DNA of 64,000 nt from a phage: sequence record PZ171032.1, one strand, 5' to 3'. Within the stretch, counting starts at the first letter, position 1; each line of letters opens with the position of its first letter. Both the position numbers and the translations under genes were made by a program. Positions 3,268 through 64,000 of this stretch are shown piece after piece. The notes below the pieces were generated by a model. It saw only the letters and a list, made by a program, of their open reading frames with translations. It did not search any database and was not told where the DNA came from.

Positions 3268-3525
3268 TCAGTCCACCTCTTCTTCTCGTTGTAGTTCAAG
3301 ATACCCGTAGGTCTGGACATCTTCAAGGGTGTGGAACTCCCCATCTGCCGCTAATGCACGAACAACTTGGCACAAAACCTTATGAGGAACTTCATCCAGA
3401 CCAAGATTCAGTGCAGGGAACACCTTATCTAAGTCAACAAAATAAATGAACTGTAGCTCACCAGCTTCAAAAGGTGTATCTTCAATAAACATCTTCTCGG
3501 CATTAGTCAAGATCTGCACTTTCAT
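3268..3525 (-). CDS. hypothetical protein
   Basis: 85-aa ORF, tightly packed with neighbours. Confidence 0.45.
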   Translation of the reverse strand: MKVQILTNAEKMFIEDTPFEAGELQFIYFVDLDKVFPALNLGLDEVPHKVLCQVVRALAADGEFHTLEDVQTYGYLELQREEEVD

Positions 3526-3881
3526 TATTCTACCTCCTCTTCTTTTTCTTCGGCATTAGTTTCATGGCTACCCCACTCCGGAGTTTCCACCTCGATAGTA
3601 AACTCACGCACTACACGGTAATTGCCCATGAAGCGCTCTACTTCGTCAAGGCTTATGGAGAGGCCATTGGCAACCAGGTCTGCAGCACCCTCTTCTACCA
3701 GGTAGTCCAGATTGGCTTCCAGAGCCTCAGGTTCAAACCCTGTCAATGCAATCAGATAACCTTCCCCTTCATCAGGGAGGACAATACAGCCCAATTGATT
3801 TTCTTTAAAAAGGCAGTGACCATCATTATTGATTGGGTGTTCATTGCAGTAAATAGCTGCACGATAAGTAACTTTAGACAT
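3525..3881 (-). CDS. hypothetical acidic protein (start refined to MSKVTYRAA)
   Basis: ORF track 3525..3902; the internal ATG at 3881 is preceded by AAGGAGACC RBS, and the 29-bp initiation segment is repeated in gene 5212..6189. Confidence 0.5.
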   Translation of the reverse strand: MSKVTYRAAIYCNEHPINNDGHCLFKENQLGCIVLPDEGEGYLIALTGFEPEALEANLDYLVEEGAADLVANGLSISLDEVERFMGNYRVVREFTIEVETPEWGSHETNAEEKEEEVE

Positions 3882-3894
3882 CGGTAAGGTCTCC

Positions 3895-4173
3895 TTAGGC
3901 AATTGTCATTTTACATTCTTGAAATTTTAACACAAGACGGTGATTGTGTCTAGTGTCTAAAAAGATTTTTTCAACCATCAGGCACACGGTATAACCGTCC
4001 ATCTTGTTGACAACAAAATCTCCAGGATGAGGGAGGATGTCTCCCGGATTGGGGAAACATAGTCCACTCAGAAAGGCATCGTCAGTGGTGGACTTAATAG
4101 ATTTCCACACACTGTCTGCCTGAACATGTTCACCGACGTAATATACATTACCACATGCCTTCATCATAGTCAA
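3895..4173 (-). CDS. hypothetical protein
   Basis: 92-aa ORF. Confidence 0.45.
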   Translation of the reverse strand: MTMMKACGNVYYVGEHVQADSVWKSIKSTTDDAFLSGLCFPNPGDILPHPGDFVVNKMDGYTVCLMVEKIFLDTRHNHRLVLKFQECKMTIA

Positions 4174-5069
4174 ACCCTCGCATAAATTAAACTTGTATCA
4201 GTATACTTCTTTAATGGGTAAATATCCTGTCCATAGATGCAATCATTAAACACCTCATCTACCCAAAGGCTACACTTATATCCCATCATTTCTAAAACAC
4301 CCATCTCTTCTTCGGTAAACTTATCACCGCTCTTGCAAGATGTCAATACCTCATTCTGAACTCTTGCTACCTCGAAGCGGTTATTGGCAATATCGCTATT
4401 GGCGATCAAATACTCACCTAGAGGGTGTGCGGCATTAAAGATGCACAGTGGACGGCTGACGTAATAGTCTCCGGGTGTATAAAAATTGTTGAGGTCTTTC
4501 ACTAGAACATTCTTATCAGTCACTTCATTTATAACATCATGCATATCGCACATCTTTATATGTTTGAGGATTCCATCCCCCATCACAAAATAAAAACTTG
4601 CTGAGACACTTTCGGCATAGATCTTACTAGATCCGTTGTAGTTGTATTTTACTCGGATGCTAACGGGGGTTTTTCCTGTCGCGTTAGCCATCATCCAAAG
4701 AAATGGCAGCTCATACTTCTCCTCTGAGGAAACAAAAGGTGAGGTAGCCAGAGATCGAAAACCTCCAGAGAAGTTGAAAGTTACAGAACCGCTCCGGCGG
4801 TATGATACCGCGTATTCTACTTTTATATCGACATACCCATTGGAATAGGTGTGTCCTTCATTATCTAAATATGTCCACTTATCAGACCCAGATACCAATC
4901 TACGCTCAATAACCTTCATCACTATAGGAATTAATGGGTTGGTACAAACCGCTTTTGAAGTAGCTTTATCATCTAAAGCCTCGTAAATTGCAGAAAGGAT
5001 GTCCCCAGCTGAAAGATTGGTTGTTATGTCCTGTTTCCACCGCGTACTAAAACTGTTAAGATTTGCCAT
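4170..5069 (-). CDS. hypothetical protein (first gene of leftward early operon)
   Basis: 299-aa ORF; AGGAG RBS; lies immediately downstream of leftward promoter. Confidence 0.55.
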   Translation of the reverse strand: MANLNSFSTRWKQDITTNLSAGDILSAIYEALDDKATSKAVCTNPLIPIVMKVIERRLVSGSDKWTYLDNEGHTYSNGYVDIKVEYAVSYRRSGSVTFNFSGGFRSLATSPFVSSEEKYELPFLWMMANATGKTPVSIRVKYNYNGSSKIYAESVSASFYFVMGDGILKHIKMCDMHDVINEVTDKNVLVKDLNNFYTPGDYYVSRPLCIFNAAHPLGEYLIANSDIANNRFEVARVQNEVLTSCKSGDKFTEEEMGVLEMMGYKCSLWVDEVFNDCIYGQDIYPLKKYTDTSLIYARV

Positions 5070-5109
5070 AAGTAAGTGCTCCTATGTTAGTTTTCTTTCG
5101 AATGGGTGC

Positions 5110-5138
5110 ACTATATTGTGGAGTTAGAGTAAAGTCAA
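5110..5138 (-). promoter_or_regulatory. sigma70-like promoter, leftward (TTGACT-17 bp-TATAGT)
   Basis: On minus strand: -35 TTGACT (plus 5133-5138), 17-bp spacer, -10 TATAGT (plus 5110-5115); upstream of gene 4170..5069. Confidence 0.55.
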
Positions 5139-5151
5139 CACGTTTTTGATG

Positions 5152-5180
5152 TTGACATCTGTTGAGACAATTGATACGAT
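5152..5180 (+). promoter_or_regulatory. sigma70-like promoter, rightward (TTGACA-17 bp-TACGAT)
   Basis: Consensus -35 TTGACA at 5152-5157, 17-bp spacer, -10 TACGAT at 5175-5180. Lies inside the 5' extension of ORF 5146..6189, so the gene more likely starts at 5212. Confidence 0.55.
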
Positions 5181-5211
5181 TTCTTCACTTACAGAGCACG
5201 AGAGACGACTC

Positions 5212-6189
5212 ATGAATCTTGAAAAATATTATACACCAGAAGAGTTAGAGCGCTTGCTCAAAAAATATAGACGCAAACAGAATAACGCACGGAAACGAGA
5301 TATAGAGTTCGACCTGTCATGGGAAGAATACCTCCTATTTGGTAAAAAACTTTTAGGAGATGGAGTATGCGACTATACCCTTATACCTTTTGACATGCAC
5401 ACAGATGAAAACGGGCTGGGGAATCCTTTCTACCCATCTCTGGAGCGGATAGATGATGAAGGTCCTTATGCGGTTGATAACTGTTGTGTGGTGGGATTGA
5501 GATGCAACTCTCTAAAGGACTGTCTGGTAGATAAAAAGACTGCAGTCTTGATTAAAGACGAAACTGATCGAAAAATTGTCCAGCAGATGATGCTCCACCT
5601 GAGCGAAGAGCGTATGGAGAAATTGAAAGGTGATTATACTTTTGAAGATTTCATCTTGCAATATGGAACGGAAGAGGATAAACTAGCACTCTTTGACGAA
5701 GAAGAGGAGGAAGATATGCTACCGATGTCTAAAGTTACTTATCGTGCACCCAAGAAGCACATTTCCGACATTGTAAACGAGCCTATCACAGAAGAGATTG
5801 AAGAAATGACGCAACAGGTGCATGAAGAGGAAAAAGAGACTCAGGAGGTCGAAGAGGAGATTACAGAAGAGGTTCCTGCACTACCTGATGATGTTGAGAT
5901 TGCCAAAGCTTACACTTTCTATTGTCAAACGTTCTACGATGTAGGTATGAAAGTTGATCTGTCGTTCAGCCAATTTAAGAGTTCGTATATTCGCAAATGC
6001 TGTGCTTTAACTGGTGAACGTCTTGGAGCTGGACTTAAACCCCTGTTGGTGACCGACTGGAATAAAGGTTTCACTAAAGGAAACTTTATGGTAGTATCTC
6101 CAATTATGGAGAAAGCTATGACAGATCTTATGAAGACCACCCGCATGACAATGACCGAGTTGGCAGGTATTTTCAAACACGTTAAATAA
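5212..6189 (+). CDS. hypothetical protein with two homologous half-domains; possible internal start at 5716
   Basis: ORF track 5146..6189; start moved to ATG 5212 downstream of promoter. N- and C-halves share a DLSW/DLSF..C..T...VTD/ERID..G...N..VV pattern; acidic linker; internal GAGGAGG RBS + ATG at 5716. Confidence 0.5.
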   Translation: MNLEKYYTPEELERLLKKYRRKQNNARKRDIEFDLSWEEYLLFGKKLLGDGVCDYTLIPFDMHTDENGLGNPFYPSLERIDDEGPYAVDNCCVVGLRCNSLKDCLVDKKTAVLIKDETDRKIVQQMMLHLSEERMEKLKGDYTFEDFILQYGTEEDKLALFDEEEEEDMLPMSKVTYRAPKKHISDIVNEPITEEIEEMTQQVHEEEKETQEVEEEITEEVPALPDDVEIAKAYTFYCQTFYDVGMKVDLSFSQFKSSYIRKCCALTGERLGAGLKPLLVTDWNKGFTKGNFMVVSPIMEKAMTDLMKTTRMTMTELAGIFKHVK

Positions 6190-6201: not shown

Positions 6202-7683
6202 ATGGCCCCTTCTGGAGTTTTAATGGATAGCAGAAGTTCAGAAATCATTGCCTCGCAGAAAGATGATGCCCTGAGAATGTTGCAGGCTGCACGTATGTAT
6301 CTCCTTGAAAAGCTGCCGTTTTATGGCACACTACTGTCAGGGTTGCAGTTCGTAGAAAACCACACATGGTGCTCCACCATGGCAACCGACCATAAACGCA
6401 TCTATTACAGTCCTGAGTTCATTATGGGATTGGCTGATGAGCGCAAGGCTATTCTTAAGGCTTCTCTAACTGACGAGCAGTTTGAGATGGCTGAAGTTTT
6501 CTATTCCCCAAAATCTGTGAAAGAGGTGGCCTTCCTTCTGTCACATGAGGTGGGGCATATTATCTGTGATCATCTAGTCCGTGGTAAAAGCTTTGAGCCG
6601 GAACTGTTCAATATTGCTTGTGATCACGTTATCAACACAGGCCTTGTGGTTGACTTTAGCAAACCTCCTTGTGTTTTCTTCCCGAAGGGGAAAAGCACTA
6701 CGTTCATGAAAGGTAAGCCTTTTGGCTTCTTAGCCAGCTGCTACTGTGACATGAGGTTTCATGGATGGATTGCTGAGAACGTTTATGCAGTTCTTGATAA
6801 GCAAAGAGATCAGAATAACGGTAAAAGTAAGAACGGTAAAGGTGAGAACTCTCAAAGTGATAAGCGACAAACCGATGATCACATGAGTGGGAACGGTGGC
6901 ACCAGTGATAATCTTGGAAAGGCTATGGGGTATGATCAGCCACAACCTGTAATCAGCCAATCTGATAAAGATCAGGCCATGCAGGACTCTGGTGATATGC
7001 TGGAGGCAGCAATGCAAGCTTCCGGAGGTCGTTGCCCTGAGGCGGTGCGTGAGTTTGTCAAGAACAGGGGTAAGCCTGTAATCAACTATATAGACATCAT
7101 TAAGCAACGCATGTTGTCTAAACGAAAGGCTGAACTGACCTACAGAAAACCTGGTCGCCGATCTGGGTCTTTGACCAGCACAATGCGAAAAGTTGGGGCT
7201 ATAAACAAGAACCAGCACGTTATTGTTCCCGGTCGTAATCCGGAAAACACCATAGATATTGTTGTAGCTTTAGACGTTTCTGGCTCGATCTCTCAAAGAA
7301 CTTTAAAGAAAATGTTCAATGAAATCACCGGATTGTGCAATCTGTATAAAGAGTTTAAGGTTACAATGTTCTGTTGGTCAACTGAGGTTGGAGAGGTTAA
7401 AGTATACACTCGCGGTAACATAGATGAGATGATCAACTATGAGGTCCACTCAACATGGGGCACAACAGCTGCTTGCGTGTTCGAGTATCTAGATGCCAAC
7501 ATACCAAATGCAAAAGATGTCATCGTATTGACCGACCTATACTTTGAGCATAACTTTGAACAAAAGGCTGTTGACAACAAGTGGAAAAAGTACGATACTT
7601 TATGGGTTCTCACCGAAGGGTATAATAAAAATTATATCCCTAGCTTTGGGAAAACTGTGGAATTAATCGAGTACGCTAAGTAA
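6202..7683 (+). CDS. VWA-domain protein with N-terminal HExxH metallopeptidase-like domain (DUF2201-like)
   Basis: 493 aa; HEVGHIICDH zinc-peptidase-like motif near N-terminus; C-terminal IDIVVALDVSGSIS (DxSxS MIDAS motif of von Willebrand A domains). Confidence 0.65.
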   Translation: MAPSGVLMDSRSSEIIASQKDDALRMLQAARMYLLEKLPFYGTLLSGLQFVENHTWCSTMATDHKRIYYSPEFIMGLADERKAILKASLTDEQFEMAEVFYSPKSVKEVAFLLSHEVGHIICDHLVRGKSFEPELFNIACDHVINTGLVVDFSKPPCVFFPKGKSTTFMKGKPFGFLASCYCDMRFHGWIAENVYAVLDKQRDQNNGKSKNGKGENSQSDKRQTDDHMSGNGGTSDNLGKAMGYDQPQPVISQSDKDQAMQDSGDMLEAAMQASGGRCPEAVREFVKNRGKPVINYIDIIKQRMLSKRKAELTYRKPGRRSGSLTSTMRKVGAINKNQHVIVPGRNPENTIDIVVALDVSGSISQRTLKKMFNEITGLCNLYKEFKVTMFCWSTEVGEVKVYTRGNIDEMINYEVHSTWGTTAACVFEYLDANIPNAKDVIVLTDLYFEHNFEQKAVDNKWKKYDTLWVLTEGYNKNYIPSFGKTVELIEYAK

Positions 7684-7698
7684 GAGAGGAGGTTATTT

Positions 7699-7962
7699 AT
7701 GGCAACAGAGTTAAAATTTGCATCAAACCGTAAAACTAAGAAGTATCTGTCCTCAGTAGCTCCAGGCACTGTGGTGATGTTTGTTGATGAACTTGGGGAT
7801 GTGAATACAGCACTTGTTGTAAAATCACATCCTGCAAACATATATGTTGGGGTATTTGACCTGTTCAGAAAGGTGTTTGTAGAACTGCCTCACAGTTTGG
7901 TTGTTACAGAAATGGATGCCTGCATAGAAATTCTTGGCGAAGTTATGGTGGAGGAACAATAA
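7699..7962 (+). CDS. small protein, tandem paralog family member 1 of 4
   Basis: 87 aa; strong GAGGAGG RBS; shares K..GTVV...ILGE pattern with next genes. Confidence 0.6.
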   Translation: MATELKFASNRKTKKYLSSVAPGTVVMFVDELGDVNTALVVKSHPANIYVGVFDLFRKVFVELPHSLVVTEMDACIEILGEVMVEEQ

Positions 7963-8225
7963 TGGCTACCAGCATTGTATTCAATTCTAAGGTGAAGAAC
8001 AAAAAGCGTGCAGACAGTTTTCCGTGTGGGACCGTGGTAAGTTGCGACGGAGACGGCATTCAAAACATAGTTATGATTGTCAAAACAGGAGAACATTGTG
8101 TGTGGGGGTTCGATTTAGAAAATAATGAGTTGTACGATCTGCCGCCAAACATGAAAGTTACAGAGCTTGACACCAAAATTACCATCCTTGGAGAGACAAG
8201 CTATTCAAAAGAAGGAGGAGAATAA
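7962..8225 (+). CDS. small protein, tandem paralog family member 2 of 4
   Basis: 87 aa; ATGA start/stop overlap with member 1; GGAGG RBS; conserved CGTVV and ITILGE motifs. Confidence 0.6.
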   Translation: MATSIVFNSKVKNKKRADSFPCGTVVSCDGDGIQNIVMIVKTGEHCVWGFDLENNELYDLPPNMKVTELDTKITILGETSYSKEGGE

Positions 8226-8488
8226 TGACCACAAAAATCACTATCGCAGAACCGAAAGCTAACACTCAGCCTATCGAAAAGTTTAAGTGCGGTGAGGTGG
8301 TAACATTCACACCAGATAATGAAGATGCTAAGATTTTCGCAATGGTCACAGCTGAGTGGATGTGTGACAACACCACACAGGTTCTGCGTTTTGACACCTA
8401 TCTTACCGATGAAATCAGGAACGACAAGATTGTGACTGGTGTGGATACTGAGATTGTTTTCTACAAGAGCTTTTTAGAGGGTTTCTGA
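8225..8488 (+). CDS. small protein, tandem paralog family member 3 of 4
   Basis: 87 aa; ATGA overlap; AAGGAGG RBS; KCGEVVTF motif. Confidence 0.55.
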   Translation: MTTKITIAEPKANTQPIEKFKCGEVVTFTPDNEDAKIFAMVTAEWMCDNTTQVLRFDTYLTDEIRNDKIVTGVDTEIVFYKSFLEGF

Positions 8489-8489
8489 T

Positions 8490-8723
8490 ATGGCAAAAAT
8501 TAGAAAATTATCTAGCAATCAGGTTGTGAAAGACTTCGAATCTGGAGAGATTCTTTATGTTCGTGATGCAGATGACGAAGGTGAAGATCTCGTTATGTTG
8601 GTGGGGCACGCTGAGGACGGATGCATCCAAGCTGTTTTTCTTGAAACAGCTATGGTGCACTGGATAGAGCTGGACCTGAAAGCACGAAAACCTAAAGCAG
8701 AAATCCTGATTTACGAAGATTAA
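8490..8723 (+). CDS. small protein, tandem paralog family member 4 of 4 (divergent)
   Basis: 77 aa; GAGGG RBS; same size class, weaker similarity. Confidence 0.5.
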   Translation: MAKIRKLSSNQVVKDFESGEILYVRDADDEGEDLVMLVGHAEDGCIQAVFLETAMVHWIELDLKARKPKAEILIYED

Positions 8724-19949: not shown

Positions 19950-20996
19950 TTAAGCATAAGATATAGTGATCCATTGACCGTTTACAAGTTTTTGGATAGC
20001 ACCTGTCCAGTAATCACCTTGATAAGGGTGTTTATAAGCGTAGTTACCAGAGCACATCACATGTCCAGGGTAGACTCTTGACTCTCTGTAGGTGGTTTTG
20101 AAACGGTTCGCTATCCTTACATCGTCAACCCCTCTACTGGGCATAGGGACAGTAAGGTTACCACTACCGTCTGCGCTGTTACCGTTTACCCTGCGGACCA
20201 CGTTTCTTCCACCAACGGTTGCATATTGGCCTCTAACGGTTTCATCGTTACAATCAACTCTTCCACCTATTTGAGCGCTTCCGCAGGATTGTTGTCCGTT
20301 AACAGTGGCTCTTGGTATCGTGACCGCATTGGCATTTGCAGAGGAACTTTTTGCATCGTTGCATTCAAGATTTCCTTGGATAGCCAGTCTTGCACGGTTG
20401 GCAGTTATAGCATTGAGCTTCATAGCCGAAAACACAGTCTGCCCACCAGAAGGTTGAAATCTCCAACGGAACCCGTCTATTTGGTGAGAAGGATCATCAA
20501 GGTCTGTGCCGTCAGCACCACCGATGTTGTCCATAATCCAGAAGTCCATCGTCGTCTTGTCTGGAGTTATGGTGGTATATATTGCCGCATTGTCTGTTGA
20601 CGCAGATGCAAACTCGATTCTTTGAAGGCCTAAAGTTTGAGTCTGAGTCATTATGTCTCCAGACTTGTCAACATACAGATCGTCCATTTCTTCAGGCGAG
20701 TATACATTGAGAACTTGACGTGCAGCAGCTTTGTCTGGAACGTCTGCTAGATTATTAGTGACCCTTAAGAATCTATTATCCCATCCTGGGACAACATCTT
20801 CTGTTAAATGCTTTAACCACGCAGAAAGCATGTGAAGTTCAAAGTTAACAACTTCACATGCCACTCTTTGTGTCATATCCCAACCTTTCAATCTCTCTTC
20901 TTTTTTTGGTTGAGACTTATTCAACTCTCCCGTATTTTCAAGCACAACATCCTGATTGGCCCAAATATCAAGAGGGATAACTGGTTTAGTCATCAC
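19950..20996 (-). CDS. tail fibre protein (Stf-like), paralog 2
   Basis: 348 aa; N-terminus PLDIWANQDVVLENT and C-terminus LVNGQWITISYA near-identical to those of gene 22008..23048; centre diverged. Confidence 0.6.
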   Translation of the reverse strand: MMTKPVIPLDIWANQDVVLENTGELNKSQPKKEERLKGWDMTQRVACEVVNFELHMLSAWLKHLTEDVVPGWDNRFLRVTNNLADVPDKAAARQVLNVYSPEEMDDLYVDKSGDIMTQTQTLGLQRIEFASASTDNAAIYTTITPDKTTMDFWIMDNIGGADGTDLDDPSHQIDGFRWRFQPSGGQTVFSAMKLNAITANRARLAIQGNLECNDAKSSSANANAVTIPRATVNGQQSCGSAQIGGRVDCNDETVRGQYATVGGRNVVRRVNGNSADGSGNLTVPMPSRGVDDVRIANRFKTTYRESRVYPGHVMCSGNYAYKHPYQGDYWTGAIQKLVNGQWITISYA

Positions 20997-22007: not shown

Positions 22008-23048
22008 CTATGCATAATTAACAGTGATCCATTGACCATTTACAAGTTTTTGTAAAGGTCCTGCCCAGTAAGTTGAACCACGCATCTCTTTTTTGTCACC
22101 GAAATGCCAGCCTGTGACAACGTAGCCGTTGCGGATTGGAGATTCAGAAACGCCGTCCACAAGTCTTGCACCGATTCTGATGTCTTGCACACCCGTCTGC
22201 GGGATAGTGATCGTTACATCACCGTTACCGTTAGCCGTCACTCCGTTCACAGAGCGAACCACATTTCTGTTACCTACAACACAGTGCTGGCTTCTTACAA
22301 CCATACTGTCACAACTTGCACCACCATTAACATATACTGACCCAGCCGTCAACTGACTAGCCACATTACAGTTGGTGAATGTTGCGGTATTGCTGATAGT
22401 AAGGTTATTGCACCTCATGTTATCGACAACTTCAACATTGCCTACCACTTTCAACAGCGCACGGTTAGCCGTGATCGCGTTAAGGTACATCAAAGTGAAC
22501 TCTGGATTAATATCCGGCTGAGTTGGCTGGAATCTCCAACGAAACGCATCTATTGTAGATGTGCCACCATCATCAAACGACCCAAAATTATCACTTAACC
22601 CAAAGTCGAGAGTTGTCTTATCTGGGCCAATAGTTGTCTCTATCCAAGCCTTATCTGTCTCGGCAGCTTTAAAGTTGATACGTTGCAAACCCAATGGGCC
22701 TGTCATTGTATCACCTGTAACTTTTACATACCTAGCGTCTGCCTCTTCCTTAGTAATAATCCCAAGGTTTCTACGGGCAACAGGAATGTTCAAAAGATCA
22801 CTCAAGTTATTATCACGTACCAGATAACGGCCTTCTTGAGCGGGGATCTGCTCGTCAGCAATGTATTTTGCCCAAGTCCCGAGCATATTGAAAATATAGT
22901 TAAGCTCTTCGCATGAGGGCTTTTGACCAAGATCCCAACCTTTTCTCCACAAATCATCAATCGGGCGTAGCCTGTTCTGTCTGTGGGTGTTAGGCAGAAC
23001 CTGATCCTCCTCTGCCCAAATCTCTAATGGAAAACTAGGTTTTGACAT
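22008..23048 (-). CDS. tail fibre protein (Stf-like), paralog 1
   Basis: 346 aa; conserved termini shared with 19950..20996; followed by Tfa-like gene. Confidence 0.6.
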   Translation of the reverse strand: MSKPSFPLEIWAEEDQVLPNTHRQNRLRPIDDLWRKGWDLGQKPSCEELNYIFNMLGTWAKYIADEQIPAQEGRYLVRDNNLSDLLNIPVARRNLGIITKEEADARYVKVTGDTMTGPLGLQRINFKAAETDKAWIETTIGPDKTTLDFGLSDNFGSFDDGGTSTIDAFRWRFQPTQPDINPEFTLMYLNAITANRALLKVVGNVEVVDNMRCNNLTISNTATFTNCNVASQLTAGSVYVNGGASCDSMVVRSQHCVVGNRNVVRSVNGVTANGNGDVTITIPQTGVQDIRIGARLVDGVSESPIRNGYVVTGWHFGDKKEMRGSTYWAGPLQKLVNGQWITVNYA

Positions 23049-27321: not shown

Positions 27322-27390
27322 GTCACTCCTCCGGTATGAAAATCTCTACAAGGTATTTTACCAAATTTTGTAACAATAGTCAATCTGAGC

Positions 27391-27417
27391 ATAAAAATAA
27401 ACCCCGCCGAAGCGGGG
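27391..27417 (-). terminator. rho-independent terminator (CCCCGC-CGAA-GCGGGG + U-run)
   Basis: Same hairpin sequence as at 968-983; UUUAUUUUUAU follows on minus strand directly downstream of the J-like gene stop. Confidence 0.6.
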
Positions 27418-27426
27418 CTTTAAAGG

Positions 27427-33140: not shown

Positions 33141-33212
33141 TGTGCCTCCAGGTTAAACAATCATGATAATTATTTTACCAGATTTTGAGTTAATACGCAA
33201 TACAAACAAAAA

Positions 33213-33232
33213 GCCCCCGCCGAAGCGAGGGC
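33213..33232 (-). terminator. terminator hairpin (GCCCCCGC-CGAA-GCGAGGGC, one mismatch) + U-run
   Basis: Third copy of the CGAA-loop GC hairpin, directly downstream of 1270-aa fibre gene stop. Confidence 0.5.
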
Positions 33233-60611: not shown

Positions 60612-60688
60612 TGGTCTCCACGGAGTGATTCGAACACTCGACCTCCTGATCCCAAATCAGGCGCTCTACCAAGCTGAGCTACGCGGAG
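60612..60688 (-). tRNA. tRNA-Pro (anticodon UGG)
   Basis: Hand fold: acceptor CTCCGCG/CGTGGAG, D-arm TAGCTCAGCTTGGTAGAGC, anticodon stem CCTGA/TCAGG with loop UUUGGGA, T-arm GAGTG-TTCGAAT-CACTC, encoded CCA. Confidence 0.75.
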
Positions 60689-60699
60689 TATTTATTATT

Positions 60700-60774
60700 T
60701 GGTGGCCCTGGGTGGAATTGAACCACCGTCTGGCGATTATGAGTCGCTTGCTTGAACCTTCCAGCTACAGGGCC
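60700..60774 (-). tRNA. tRNA-Met (anticodon CAU; could be Ile-lysidine type)
   Basis: Acceptor GGCCCTG/CAGGGCC, anticodon loop CUCAUAA, T-arm GGTGG-TTCAATT-CCACC, encoded CCA. Confidence 0.65.
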
Positions 60775-60775
60775 A

Positions 60776-60851
60776 TGGTGCTGATGGCAGGACTTGAACC
60801 TGCAACCTATTGATTACAAATCAATTGCACTACCAATTGTGCTACATCAGC
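60776..60851 (-). tRNA. tRNA-Thr (anticodon UGU)
   Basis: Acceptor GCTGATG/CATCAGC, D-arm GCAC-AATTGGTA-GTGC, anticodon stem ATTGA/TCAAT with loop UUUGUAA, T-arm GCAGG-TTCAAGT-CCTGC, CCA encoded; 1-nt spacer to tRNA-Met. Confidence 0.75.
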
Positions 60852-60858
60852 AAAAAGG

Positions 60859-60955
60859 TGCTAGGTGATGGAATCGAACCACCTATGTATTCAACGACTA
60901 CCTCGTCTATTTTCAGGATTAAAAATCCTCGCCCTTGCCAAAGGGCTTACCTAGC
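60859..60955 (-). tRNA. atypical tRNA-like element (about 97 nt; anticodon loop UUUUUAA, so Lys-UUU if functional; possible pseudo-tRNA)
   Basis: Good acceptor (GCTAGGT/ACCTAGC) and T-arm (GGTGG-TTCGATT-CCATC) but about 30-nt variable region with internal hairpin and no encoded CCA. Confidence 0.35.
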
Positions 60956-61053
60956 TCAGTATGTTGACCATGTTGCTAGTCGGCGATGACGACTGTAACA
61001 TTTGATAATCCGGTTCTGCTTCCGGCTTTCGCTTAATTACAAGGTCAACAATA

Positions 61054-61144
61054 TGGCTGAGGGTAATGGAATCGAACCATCATCAAGTCATCCTCAACGG
61101 GACGGTTTTCAAGACCGCTTGAGCACCATTGCTCCCTACCCTCA
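61054..61144 (-). tRNA. tRNA-Ser (anticodon UGA), long variable arm
   Basis: Acceptor TGAGGGT/ACCCTCA, anticodon stem GCGGT/ACCGT with loop CUUGAAA, long variable arm, T-arm GATGG-TTCGATT-CCATT, encoded CCA. Confidence 0.6.
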
Positions 61145-61260
61145 TTTATAAACAATACTGATAATGACACTGATTTTCGAGCAGTTAGTGACTAGTATAA
61201 ACGACGATAAATATCAATGCCATTATCTGTATGATTTATGCATTTAAAAAAATATAAATT

Positions 61261-61348
61261 TGGTGGTGAGTGATGGAGTCGAACCACCCGAATCGCAATT
61301 ATAACAGATTTACAGTCTGCCCCGCTACCCCTACGGAATTAACTCACC
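61261..61348 (-). tRNA. tRNA-Tyr (anticodon GUA), long variable arm, irregular D-region
   Basis: Anticodon arm CAGACUGUAAAUCUG matches recalled E. coli tRNA-Tyr; acceptor GGTGAGT/ACTCACC, T-arm GGTGG-TTCGACT-CCATC, CCA encoded; D-arm pairing non-canonical. Confidence 0.55.
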
Positions 61349-61478
61349 TAAATACTAATATTTAAATTCTTTTTAAAATAGCTAGTGTTCTCACCACTAA
61401 CTATGAGGTATCGGTAAAGTGGTTACCGCCACTTGCCGAAGATTTACTCTGCTAAAGTAAGCTACATTAAAAAGAACT

Positions 61479-61553
61479 TGGCACCCCGTACTGGACTCGA
61501 ACCAGTGTCAACGGCTTAGAAGGCCGCTGCTTTATCCACTAAGCTAACAGGGC
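61479..61553 (-). tRNA. tRNA-Arg (anticodon UCU)
   Basis: Acceptor GCCCTGT/ACGGGGT (two G-U pairs), D-arm GCTT-AGTGGATA-AAGC, anticodon stem GCGGC/GCCGT with loop CUUCUAA, T-arm ACTGG-TTCGAGT-CCAGT, CCA encoded. Confidence 0.7.
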
Positions 61554-63918: not shown

Positions 63919-64000
63919 GTGTCCGTATCACGGACAGTAGTGTCCGTATCACGGACAGTAGTGTCCGTATCACGGACAGTAGTGTCCGTATCACGGACAG
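63919..64000. repeat. tandem direct repeats of a 21-bp unit GTGTCCGTATCACGGACAGTA (3.9 copies, truncated by window end)
   Basis: Exact copies at 63919-63939, 63940-63960, 63961-63981 and a partial fourth; each unit has inverted repeat GTCCGT-atc-ACGGAC. Confidence 0.9.

Follow-up and report, generated by a model that had tools for sequence, protein, structure and literature searches.

A 29-bp inverted repeat between two Vequintavirus genes is best explained as the scar of a short copying event

Why should the start of one phage gene be found, letter for letter and in inverted orientation, in the middle of another? The question is raised by a stretch of 64,000 nucleotides (nt) from sequence record PZ171032.1, which is called the window here and comes from a Vequintavirus, an rV5-like E. 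coli myovirus with 99.6% identity over 4 kb to pangalan, rV5_ev146 and Murica. The sequence TACCGATGTCTAAAGTTACTTATCGTGCA is present in the 64-kb window exactly twice, with 0 mismatches and on opposite strands, at 3858–3886(−) and 5720–5748(+). The initial annotation of this DNA had described the segment as one that spans a translation start and is shared, in inverted orientation, by two genes. This description holds, as there are two exact copies in the window and no match in 100 dinucleotide-preserving shuffles, even when up to 3 mismatches are allowed. In a repeat scan, the 29-mer is the longest exact dispersed repeat of the window, and the pair is its sole perfect long inverted repeat, 100% complementary with a spacer of 1833 nt. 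The feature is real and non-random, and a mutational scar of a known kind, with no dedicated function, accounts for it best. Very probably, one short-patch ectopic gene conversion (a templated multi-nucleotide mutation) left the repeat behind in the ancestor of one allele lineage of the Vequintavirus gene gp11.

The two genes are referred to here as gene A and gene B, and the two copies of the 29-mer as arm A and arm B. They are placed in the window as follows.

3525–3881, minus strand: gene A, 118 amino acids, the equivalent of rV5 ORF8 (from the list of open reading frames (ORFs), the annotation in relatives and a PHROG match).
3858–3886, minus strand: arm A, the donor copy; an exact match comprising 5 nt of the initiation region, the ATG and 7 codons.
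3887–5719, no strand: the inter-arm segment, 1833 nt, from the geometry of the repeat scan; it would flip upon recombination between the arms.
5212–6189, plus strand: gene B, 325 amino acids, two domains, the equivalent of rV5 gp11 (from the ORF list, PHROG, alignment and PMC3606486).
5720–5748, plus strand: arm B, the recipient copy; an exact match and the derived patch in the linker of gene B.

Arm A covers the final 5 nt upstream of the ATG together with the codons MSKVTYRA of gene A. Arm B lies inside gene B in the same frame as gene A and reads L-P-M-S-K-V-T-Y-R-A (…DMLPMSKVTYRAPKK…). The identity is confined to the 29 nt: position 5719 is C in gene B and T in gene A, and position 5749 is C in gene B and G in gene A. 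Upstream of arm B there is an ATG at 5716 and, as the initial annotation had said, a GAGGAGG inside the ORF, which is present at 5704–5710. The inter-arm segment holds the minus-strand genes 3895–4173 and 4170–5069, a divergent promoter gap at 5070–5211 and the N-terminal domain of gene B.

Which of the two copies came first? This can be read from the relatives. The homologous 2.9-kb region of 25 related genomes or contigs, at 0–14% divergence, was compared with the window, giving an alignment of 26 sequences. The main sample consists of GenBank phages, and a search of IMG/VR with protein A contributed 2 related loci. All of the 25 related loci have arm A where gene A starts, either exactly or with 1–3 substitutions, and this includes loci that have no arm B. 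Within the aligned set, only seven sequences carry arm B: the window, Murica, pangalan, inoa, nomine, MiataMamis and ECP32. At the site of the patch, gene B differs and is longer in the non-carriers, among them rV5, FV3, typing phage 14, V18 and the two IMG/VR contigs. This long allele reads GATATG TCACCGATG CAGGATTTTAAAAATTTCATGGCTG ATCGTGCAGCC AAC and encodes DMSPMQDFKNFMADRAANKH; at the left edge of the site, gene B of rV5, TP14 and NHEP1 has TCACCGATG.

The long allele is found in every deep lineage (rV5, FV3 and the IMG/VR contigs, up to 9–14% diverged) and it has synonymous diversity of its own, with GAT/GAC, AAT/AAC, TTC/TTT and GCA/GGA/GAA variants. The gene A-like allele is one tight haplotype. 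Consequently, arm B is the derived copy and arm A the donor. An 80-nt junction query recovers the derived allele, with the same flanking haplotype, from 28 of the approximately 118 Vequintavirus records in GenBank (26 distinct phages); the junction is 100% identical in 27 of these records and 97.5% identical in the remaining one. Consistent with this count, the searches with chimeric junctions described below find 28 and 27 records that have two matching places. The gene B arm is missing in approximately 75% of Vequintaviruses, and no allele intermediate between the long and the derived form is seen among the approximately 118 records.

How was the copy made? The alignment divides arm B into three parts.

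5721–5727, plus strand: left microhomology ACCGATG, common to gene A and the ancestral gene B allele.
5728–5740, plus strand: replacement tract TCTAAAGTTACTT, 13 nt, in place of the ancestral 25 nt CAGGATTTTAAAAATTTCATGGCTG (from the alignment of 26 sequences).
5741–5748, plus strand: right microhomology ATCGTGCA (ATCGTGCAGC in rV5-type alleles), common to gene A and the ancestral gene B allele.

In gene B, the 13 nt take the place of the 25 nt in frame, which shortens the gene by 4 codons. The tract is directly bordered by ACCGATG on its left and by ATCGTGCAGC on its right, and in non-carriers both words already stand at the start of gene A as well as in the linker of gene B. The 10-nt ATCGTGCAGC, for example, is found at both places in rV5, TP14, Ph203, V18, I29 and other non-carriers. 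Pairs of sites with this geometry of 7 and 10 nt are plentiful, with 337 in the window compared with approximately 220 in shuffles. Because such microhomology pairs are abundant by chance, the similarity that existed between A and B beforehand needs no functional or special explanation. The ACCGATG and ACCAATG variants were also followed at the two sites, and their covariation is inconsistent across lineages. A mutation shower at the edges of the tract was considered as well and rejected: differences in the right flank are about as dense as between these haplotypes in general, which diverge by 5–10%.

Under the short-patch conversion favored here, the ancestral gene B linker would have read ...TCACCGATG-CAGGATTTTAAAAATTTCATGGCTG-ATCGTGCAGCC... 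and would have matched the start of gene A, inverted and 1.8 kb off, by chance at ACCGATG and ATCGTGCA(GC). A 3′ end would then pair at one of the microhomologies, either during the repair of a break by synthesis-dependent strand annealing or in a template switch during replication. Here, some 13–21 nt would be copied off gene A, with a return at the other microhomology. The outcome would be the exchange of 25 nt for 13 nt that turns DMSPMQDFKNFMADRAANKH into DMLPMSKVTYRAPKKH, and the derived allele would subsequently be passed between phages via ordinary homologous recombination. The change would have been tolerated because the acidic linker in which it falls, between the two conserved domains of gp11, varies in length and is poorly conserved. 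The repeat itself is probably without function and neutral, the neutrality being what we infer from these comparisons.

Events of this kind have precedents. Template switching and the homogenization of arms between imperfect inverted repeats are a documented origin of multi-nucleotide coding changes (PMC8604942, which cites Schultz & Drake 2008 regarding phage T4). As in templated mutagenesis (quasipalindrome correction in the Ripley model, and the arm homogenization in yeast genes of PMC8604942), the clustered change in gene B perfects an imperfect inverted repeat, the new bases are the copy of a donor in the same genome, short homologies that existed before bound the tract, and the protein is changed in frame. 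The locus differs from that system in the spacing of its arms and in the net deletion of 12 nt, and in that the mechanism is reconstructed here by comparison. The event also resembles ectopic (non-allelic) gene conversion by synthesis-dependent strand annealing, in that it is one-way, with a conserved and unchanged donor, a tract of tens of nt and no crossover. Such conversion, however, usually takes place between paralogues with long homology, whereas the genes here are unrelated and share microhomologies of 7 nt and 8–10 nt. In keeping with this, a comparison of the gene A protein with the gene B protein, which included a test for paralogy with the C-terminal half of B, finds only the 8 shared residues.

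Several points weigh against this explanation. Classical template switches span a few to tens of bases, whereas the arms of this repeat are 1.8 kb apart. Because of this distance, break repair by synthesis-dependent strand annealing seems likelier than a short-range polymerase switch, and it is between these two, break repair or template switch, that we infer the molecular route to lie. In addition, C 5719 and C 5749 are found neither in gene A nor in the ancestral gene B alleles sampled, which requires either extra substitutions or a recipient haplotype outside the sample. Finally, the derived allele is found in several backgrounds, which could reflect a selective advantage instead of neutrality.

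Could the patch have come from elsewhere? Here, a phage outside the sample would have supplied the derived linker allele horizontally, and the identity of this allele to gene A would be secondary. The bases by the repeat in gene B that have no counterpart in gene A or in the ancestral alleles sampled (C 5719, C 5749 and also G 5754) would fit such an import, as would the strongly mosaic nature of the region. Even so, this origin is very unlikely. Coincidence is impossible for 29 nt that agree exactly with a gene of the same genome at a distance of 1.8 kb, and an external gp11 allele would itself have had to copy gene A. Furthermore, no other source of the sequence is found in phages, IMG/VR, metagenomes, or bacterial or E. 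coli genomes. The search for a third copy in phage genomes, E. coli genomes, other bacterial genomes, IMG/VR and metagenomes was likewise negative, with carriers having two places per record. A host-derived or third-party donor was rejected on the same grounds, as there are no matches in metagenomes, IMG/VR, E. coli or other bacterial genomes.

How did a single conversion reach so many phages? The backgrounds in which the allele is found are mosaic. The inoa sequence is window-like from approximately 5561 onward and 4.7% diverged upstream. ECP32 has a window-like block at roughly 5515–5915 (approximately 0.4–0.5 kb) within an otherwise NHEP1-like gene, and I29 is window-like on the left and rV5-like from 5440 on. 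From these mosaic backgrounds it follows that the allele arose once and was then moved by ordinary homologous recombination. The comparison of the relatives shows which copy is the donor, that the origin was single, that microhomologies lie at the edges, that the patch is in the linker and that the allele spread as a mosaic.

The initial annotation had offered an exchange of N-terminal modules by recombination as one possible source of the repeat. The recombinational part of this proposal comes closest, in that a recombinational or templated copying event made the repeat. The module exchange does not, as the transfer was one-way, involved approximately 13–21 nt placed into a linker and left 8 residues shared. 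The comparison with related genomes that it had called for finds the gene B arm to be missing from most of them.

Most carriers have 29 nt in common between A and B; the stretch has shrunk to 27 nt in nomine and to 24 nt in ECP32, where the lost identity lies upstream of the ATG. Judged from these carriers, the two arms drift independently and their identity is not maintained.

A separate observation on this gene concerns the points at which haplotypes switch. Those of I29 (approximately 5440), ECP32 (approximately 5515) and inoa (approximately 5560) fall within approximately 120 nt of the gene B N-terminal domain, which suggests a local hotspot of recombination breakpoints in gp11 at approximately 5440–5560.

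What kind of protein received the patch? Gene B matches phrog_3118 over its full length, and its N-terminal half also matches the PHROGs "Srd anti-sigma factor" and "decoy of host sigma70" as well as endonuclease VII-like and HNH-like families. No Pfam or NCBIfam model is matched by gene B at threshold. The annotations of the gene vary, being "anti-sigma factor, Srd-like" and, in RefSeq, "HNH endonuclease". The gp11 protein of rV5 has been named a Srd homologue (PMC3606486). The likeness to the T4 Srd and Srh "decoy of host sigma" proteins lies in the match of the N-terminal half to those PHROG families. However, the same region also matches the endonuclease VII/HNH-like PHROGs, with no Pfam or NCBIfam model at threshold, and the likeness bears on the identity of the recipient gene only and gives no account of the repeat. 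No relatedness is detected between the N-terminal and C-terminal halves of gene B.

The gp11 orthologues of Seunavirus, Mydovirus and Henunavirus are single full-length ORFs that cover residues 1–324 at 37–40% identity. As judged from these orthologues, gp11 is one full-length, two-domain protein throughout the Vequintavirinae. In the alignment, the patch is located in the non-conserved, indel-rich acidic linker that joins the two conserved domains. The disorder of this linker is taken from the alignment alone; a single-sequence structure model, with a mean pLDDT (predicted local distance difference test) of 34, was of no use.

Could the patch nonetheless serve as a start site? Here, the initiation context of gene A (−5 to +24) would have been placed at an in-frame Met of the gp11 linker, the C-terminal domain would be made from 5716 or 5725, and its control by a protein or a small RNA (sRNA) would be shared with gene A. 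The arrangement looks suitable for this. The GAGGAGG resembles a Shine-Dalgarno sequence and is 5 nt ahead of the ATG at 5716 and 14 nt ahead of the ATG at 5725, the start of the patch coincides with a domain boundary, and the derived allele persists across several genomic backgrounds. The GAGGAGG, however, belongs to a run of Glu codons that varies by indels, being EEEEED, EEWEED or EEEED inside the genus, and is thus a by-product of the coding sequence. The Met residues of DM(S/L)PM are present within Vequintavirus, but they are absent or unalignable in the single full-length orthologues of Seunavirus, Mydovirus and Henunavirus. Further evidence against the proposal is that the arm is missing in about three-quarters of Vequintaviruses, that the part of it before the ATG is not kept identical in the carriers nomine and ECP32, and that no annotator of the related records has called an internal gene.

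Searches for regulatory signals point the same way. RNA folding of the three start contexts gives z values of 0.02, 0.68 and 0.24 relative to shuffles, that is, structure within the shuffle range and no signal. The scan for promoters and terminators is at chance level, with 8 hits compared with 6.5 expected. A sigma-70-like TTGACG-16-TATGCT at 5693–5720(+), in which the derived bases at 5719–5720 turn TATGTC into the better −10 sequence TATGCT, was examined and put down to chance; its transcript would begin after the ATG at 5725. An internal start or shared control with gene A is very unlikely.

The initial annotation had raised both of these ideas. A shared regulatory target for a translational repressor or an sRNA is disfavored, as some three-quarters of the relatives lack the gene B arm, the arms drift and no structure rises above that of shuffles. 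The internal start at 5716 lacks comparative support, as the Shine-Dalgarno-like GAGGAGG is simply Glu codons in a variable acidic run and the Met codons are absent from the three other genera of Vequintavirinae.

A different role would follow from the inverted orientation of the arms. Invertible segments, such as the G segment of Mu with Gin, the C segment of P1 with Cin, the Hin segment of Salmonella and the shufflons, are bounded by short inverted repeats. As in these segments, the locus has an inverted repeat of a length in the range of approximately 26–34 bp that is inside coding sequence and in frame, such that a flip would swap parts of proteins. The 29-bp repeats would allow the promoter-bearing segment of 1.8 kb to invert. 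This would fuse the Srd-like N-terminal domain of B to protein A and place the C-terminal domain of B behind the ribosome-binding site of gene A. The geometry permits flipping, as the inverted repeats are perfect and in the same frame and flank the divergent promoters (PMC3606486).

The predicted chimeric junctions are ...GAGGAAGATATGC-[29-mer]-GCTATTTACTGC... for the first and ...CCTAAGGAGACCT-[29-mer]-CCCAAGAAGCAC... for the second, and both are missing from 50,697 phage records. In agreement, 116 of 119 records are collinear with the locus in one piece and the remainder are short fragments. There is no exact match to the 29-mer in IMG/VR or in bacterial genomes, and the sole metagenome contig that has it shows the parental arrangement with the same spacing. 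Unlike in the known invertible segments, no invertase is seen near the locus: no recombinase domain is found in the six neighboring ORFs scanned and none is listed nearby in the annotations of relatives. Nor is a second orientation present in any assembly. The repeat is also missing from most relatives, and two of its carriers, nomine and ECP32, retain only 27 and 24 nt of it, respectively. Inversion is therefore highly improbable.

What does the repeat mean for the phage? It is quite unlikely that the patch is functional, be it through a free C-terminal domain that is co-regulated with gene A or through a rare inversion that moves the Srd-like domain and promoter onto protein A. If either the internal start or the inversion were true, new protein architectures would have arisen in a lytic phage out of chance microhomology; otherwise, there is no evident consequence for phage biology. 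As the scar of a short-patch conversion, the repeat is a clean natural example that displays the donor, the recipient, the microhomologies at the edges and the ancestral allele together. It illustrates how the copying of a patch templated by microhomology, between unrelated genes 1.8 kb apart, can rewrite a protein linker that then spreads in mosaic fashion. It also serves as a caution that a striking exact repeat over a phage start codon can be a mutational scar instead of a control element. Comparison of approximately 100 close relatives settles quickly which of the two it is.

The product of gene A matches phrog_12908, of unknown function, at 2e-80 and is a hypothetical protein in rV5. No Pfam or NCBIfam family is matched at significance, and PHROGs alone gave a match.

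Among the records related to the window in this region, GenBank has 16 in the MG0656xx series that are labeled "Campylobacter phage" (C12, C2, A135 and others, several of them UNVERIFIED). They are 93–99% identical to the E. coli Vequintaviruses here, and these records with a Campylobacter jejuni label are probably mislabeled or contaminant phages.

The genes around A and B also drew attention. The gene after gene B, at 6223–7683(+), has a DUF2201_N putative metallopeptidase domain and a VWA-like DUF2201 domain; the RefSeq label "HNH endonuclease" on this metallopeptidase/VWA protein looks like a naming error. An ORF of 394 amino acids at 1387–2571(−) is a MoxR-type ATPase by annotation in relatives. 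Going by these domains and annotations, the two genes are a MoxR/VWA pair separated by the divergent block. Farther on, 7699–8723(+) holds four small consecutive ORFs of 87, 87, 87 and 77 amino acids, whose N-terminal halves look alike by eye in the ORF list. They are probably a family of tandem paralogues.

Other features of the window lie farther off. At 63919–64000 there is a perfect tandem array of the 21-nt unit GTGTCCGTATCACGGACAGTA (3.9 copies, 100% identity), which continues past the end of the window. Each unit holds a 7-bp palindrome, TGTCCGT-ATC-ACGGACA, and the array looks like a putative iteron or protein-binding array. A cluster of tRNA genes at 60612–61553(−) comprises Pro-TGG, Met-CAT, Thr-TGT, Ser-TGA and Arg-TCT, together with an odd, tRNA-like call of 99 nt with a four-base anticodon at 60857–60955. 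The GC-rich hairpin CCCCGCCGAAGCGGGG, with an A-rich stretch before it, is present in three copies (956–984, 27390–27418 and 33203–33231), which are probably intrinsic terminators in the minus-strand sense. Finally, a direct repeat of 63 nt with 83% identity, at 19951–20013 and 22009–22071 (2058 nt apart), probably marks paralogous segments in neighboring structural genes.

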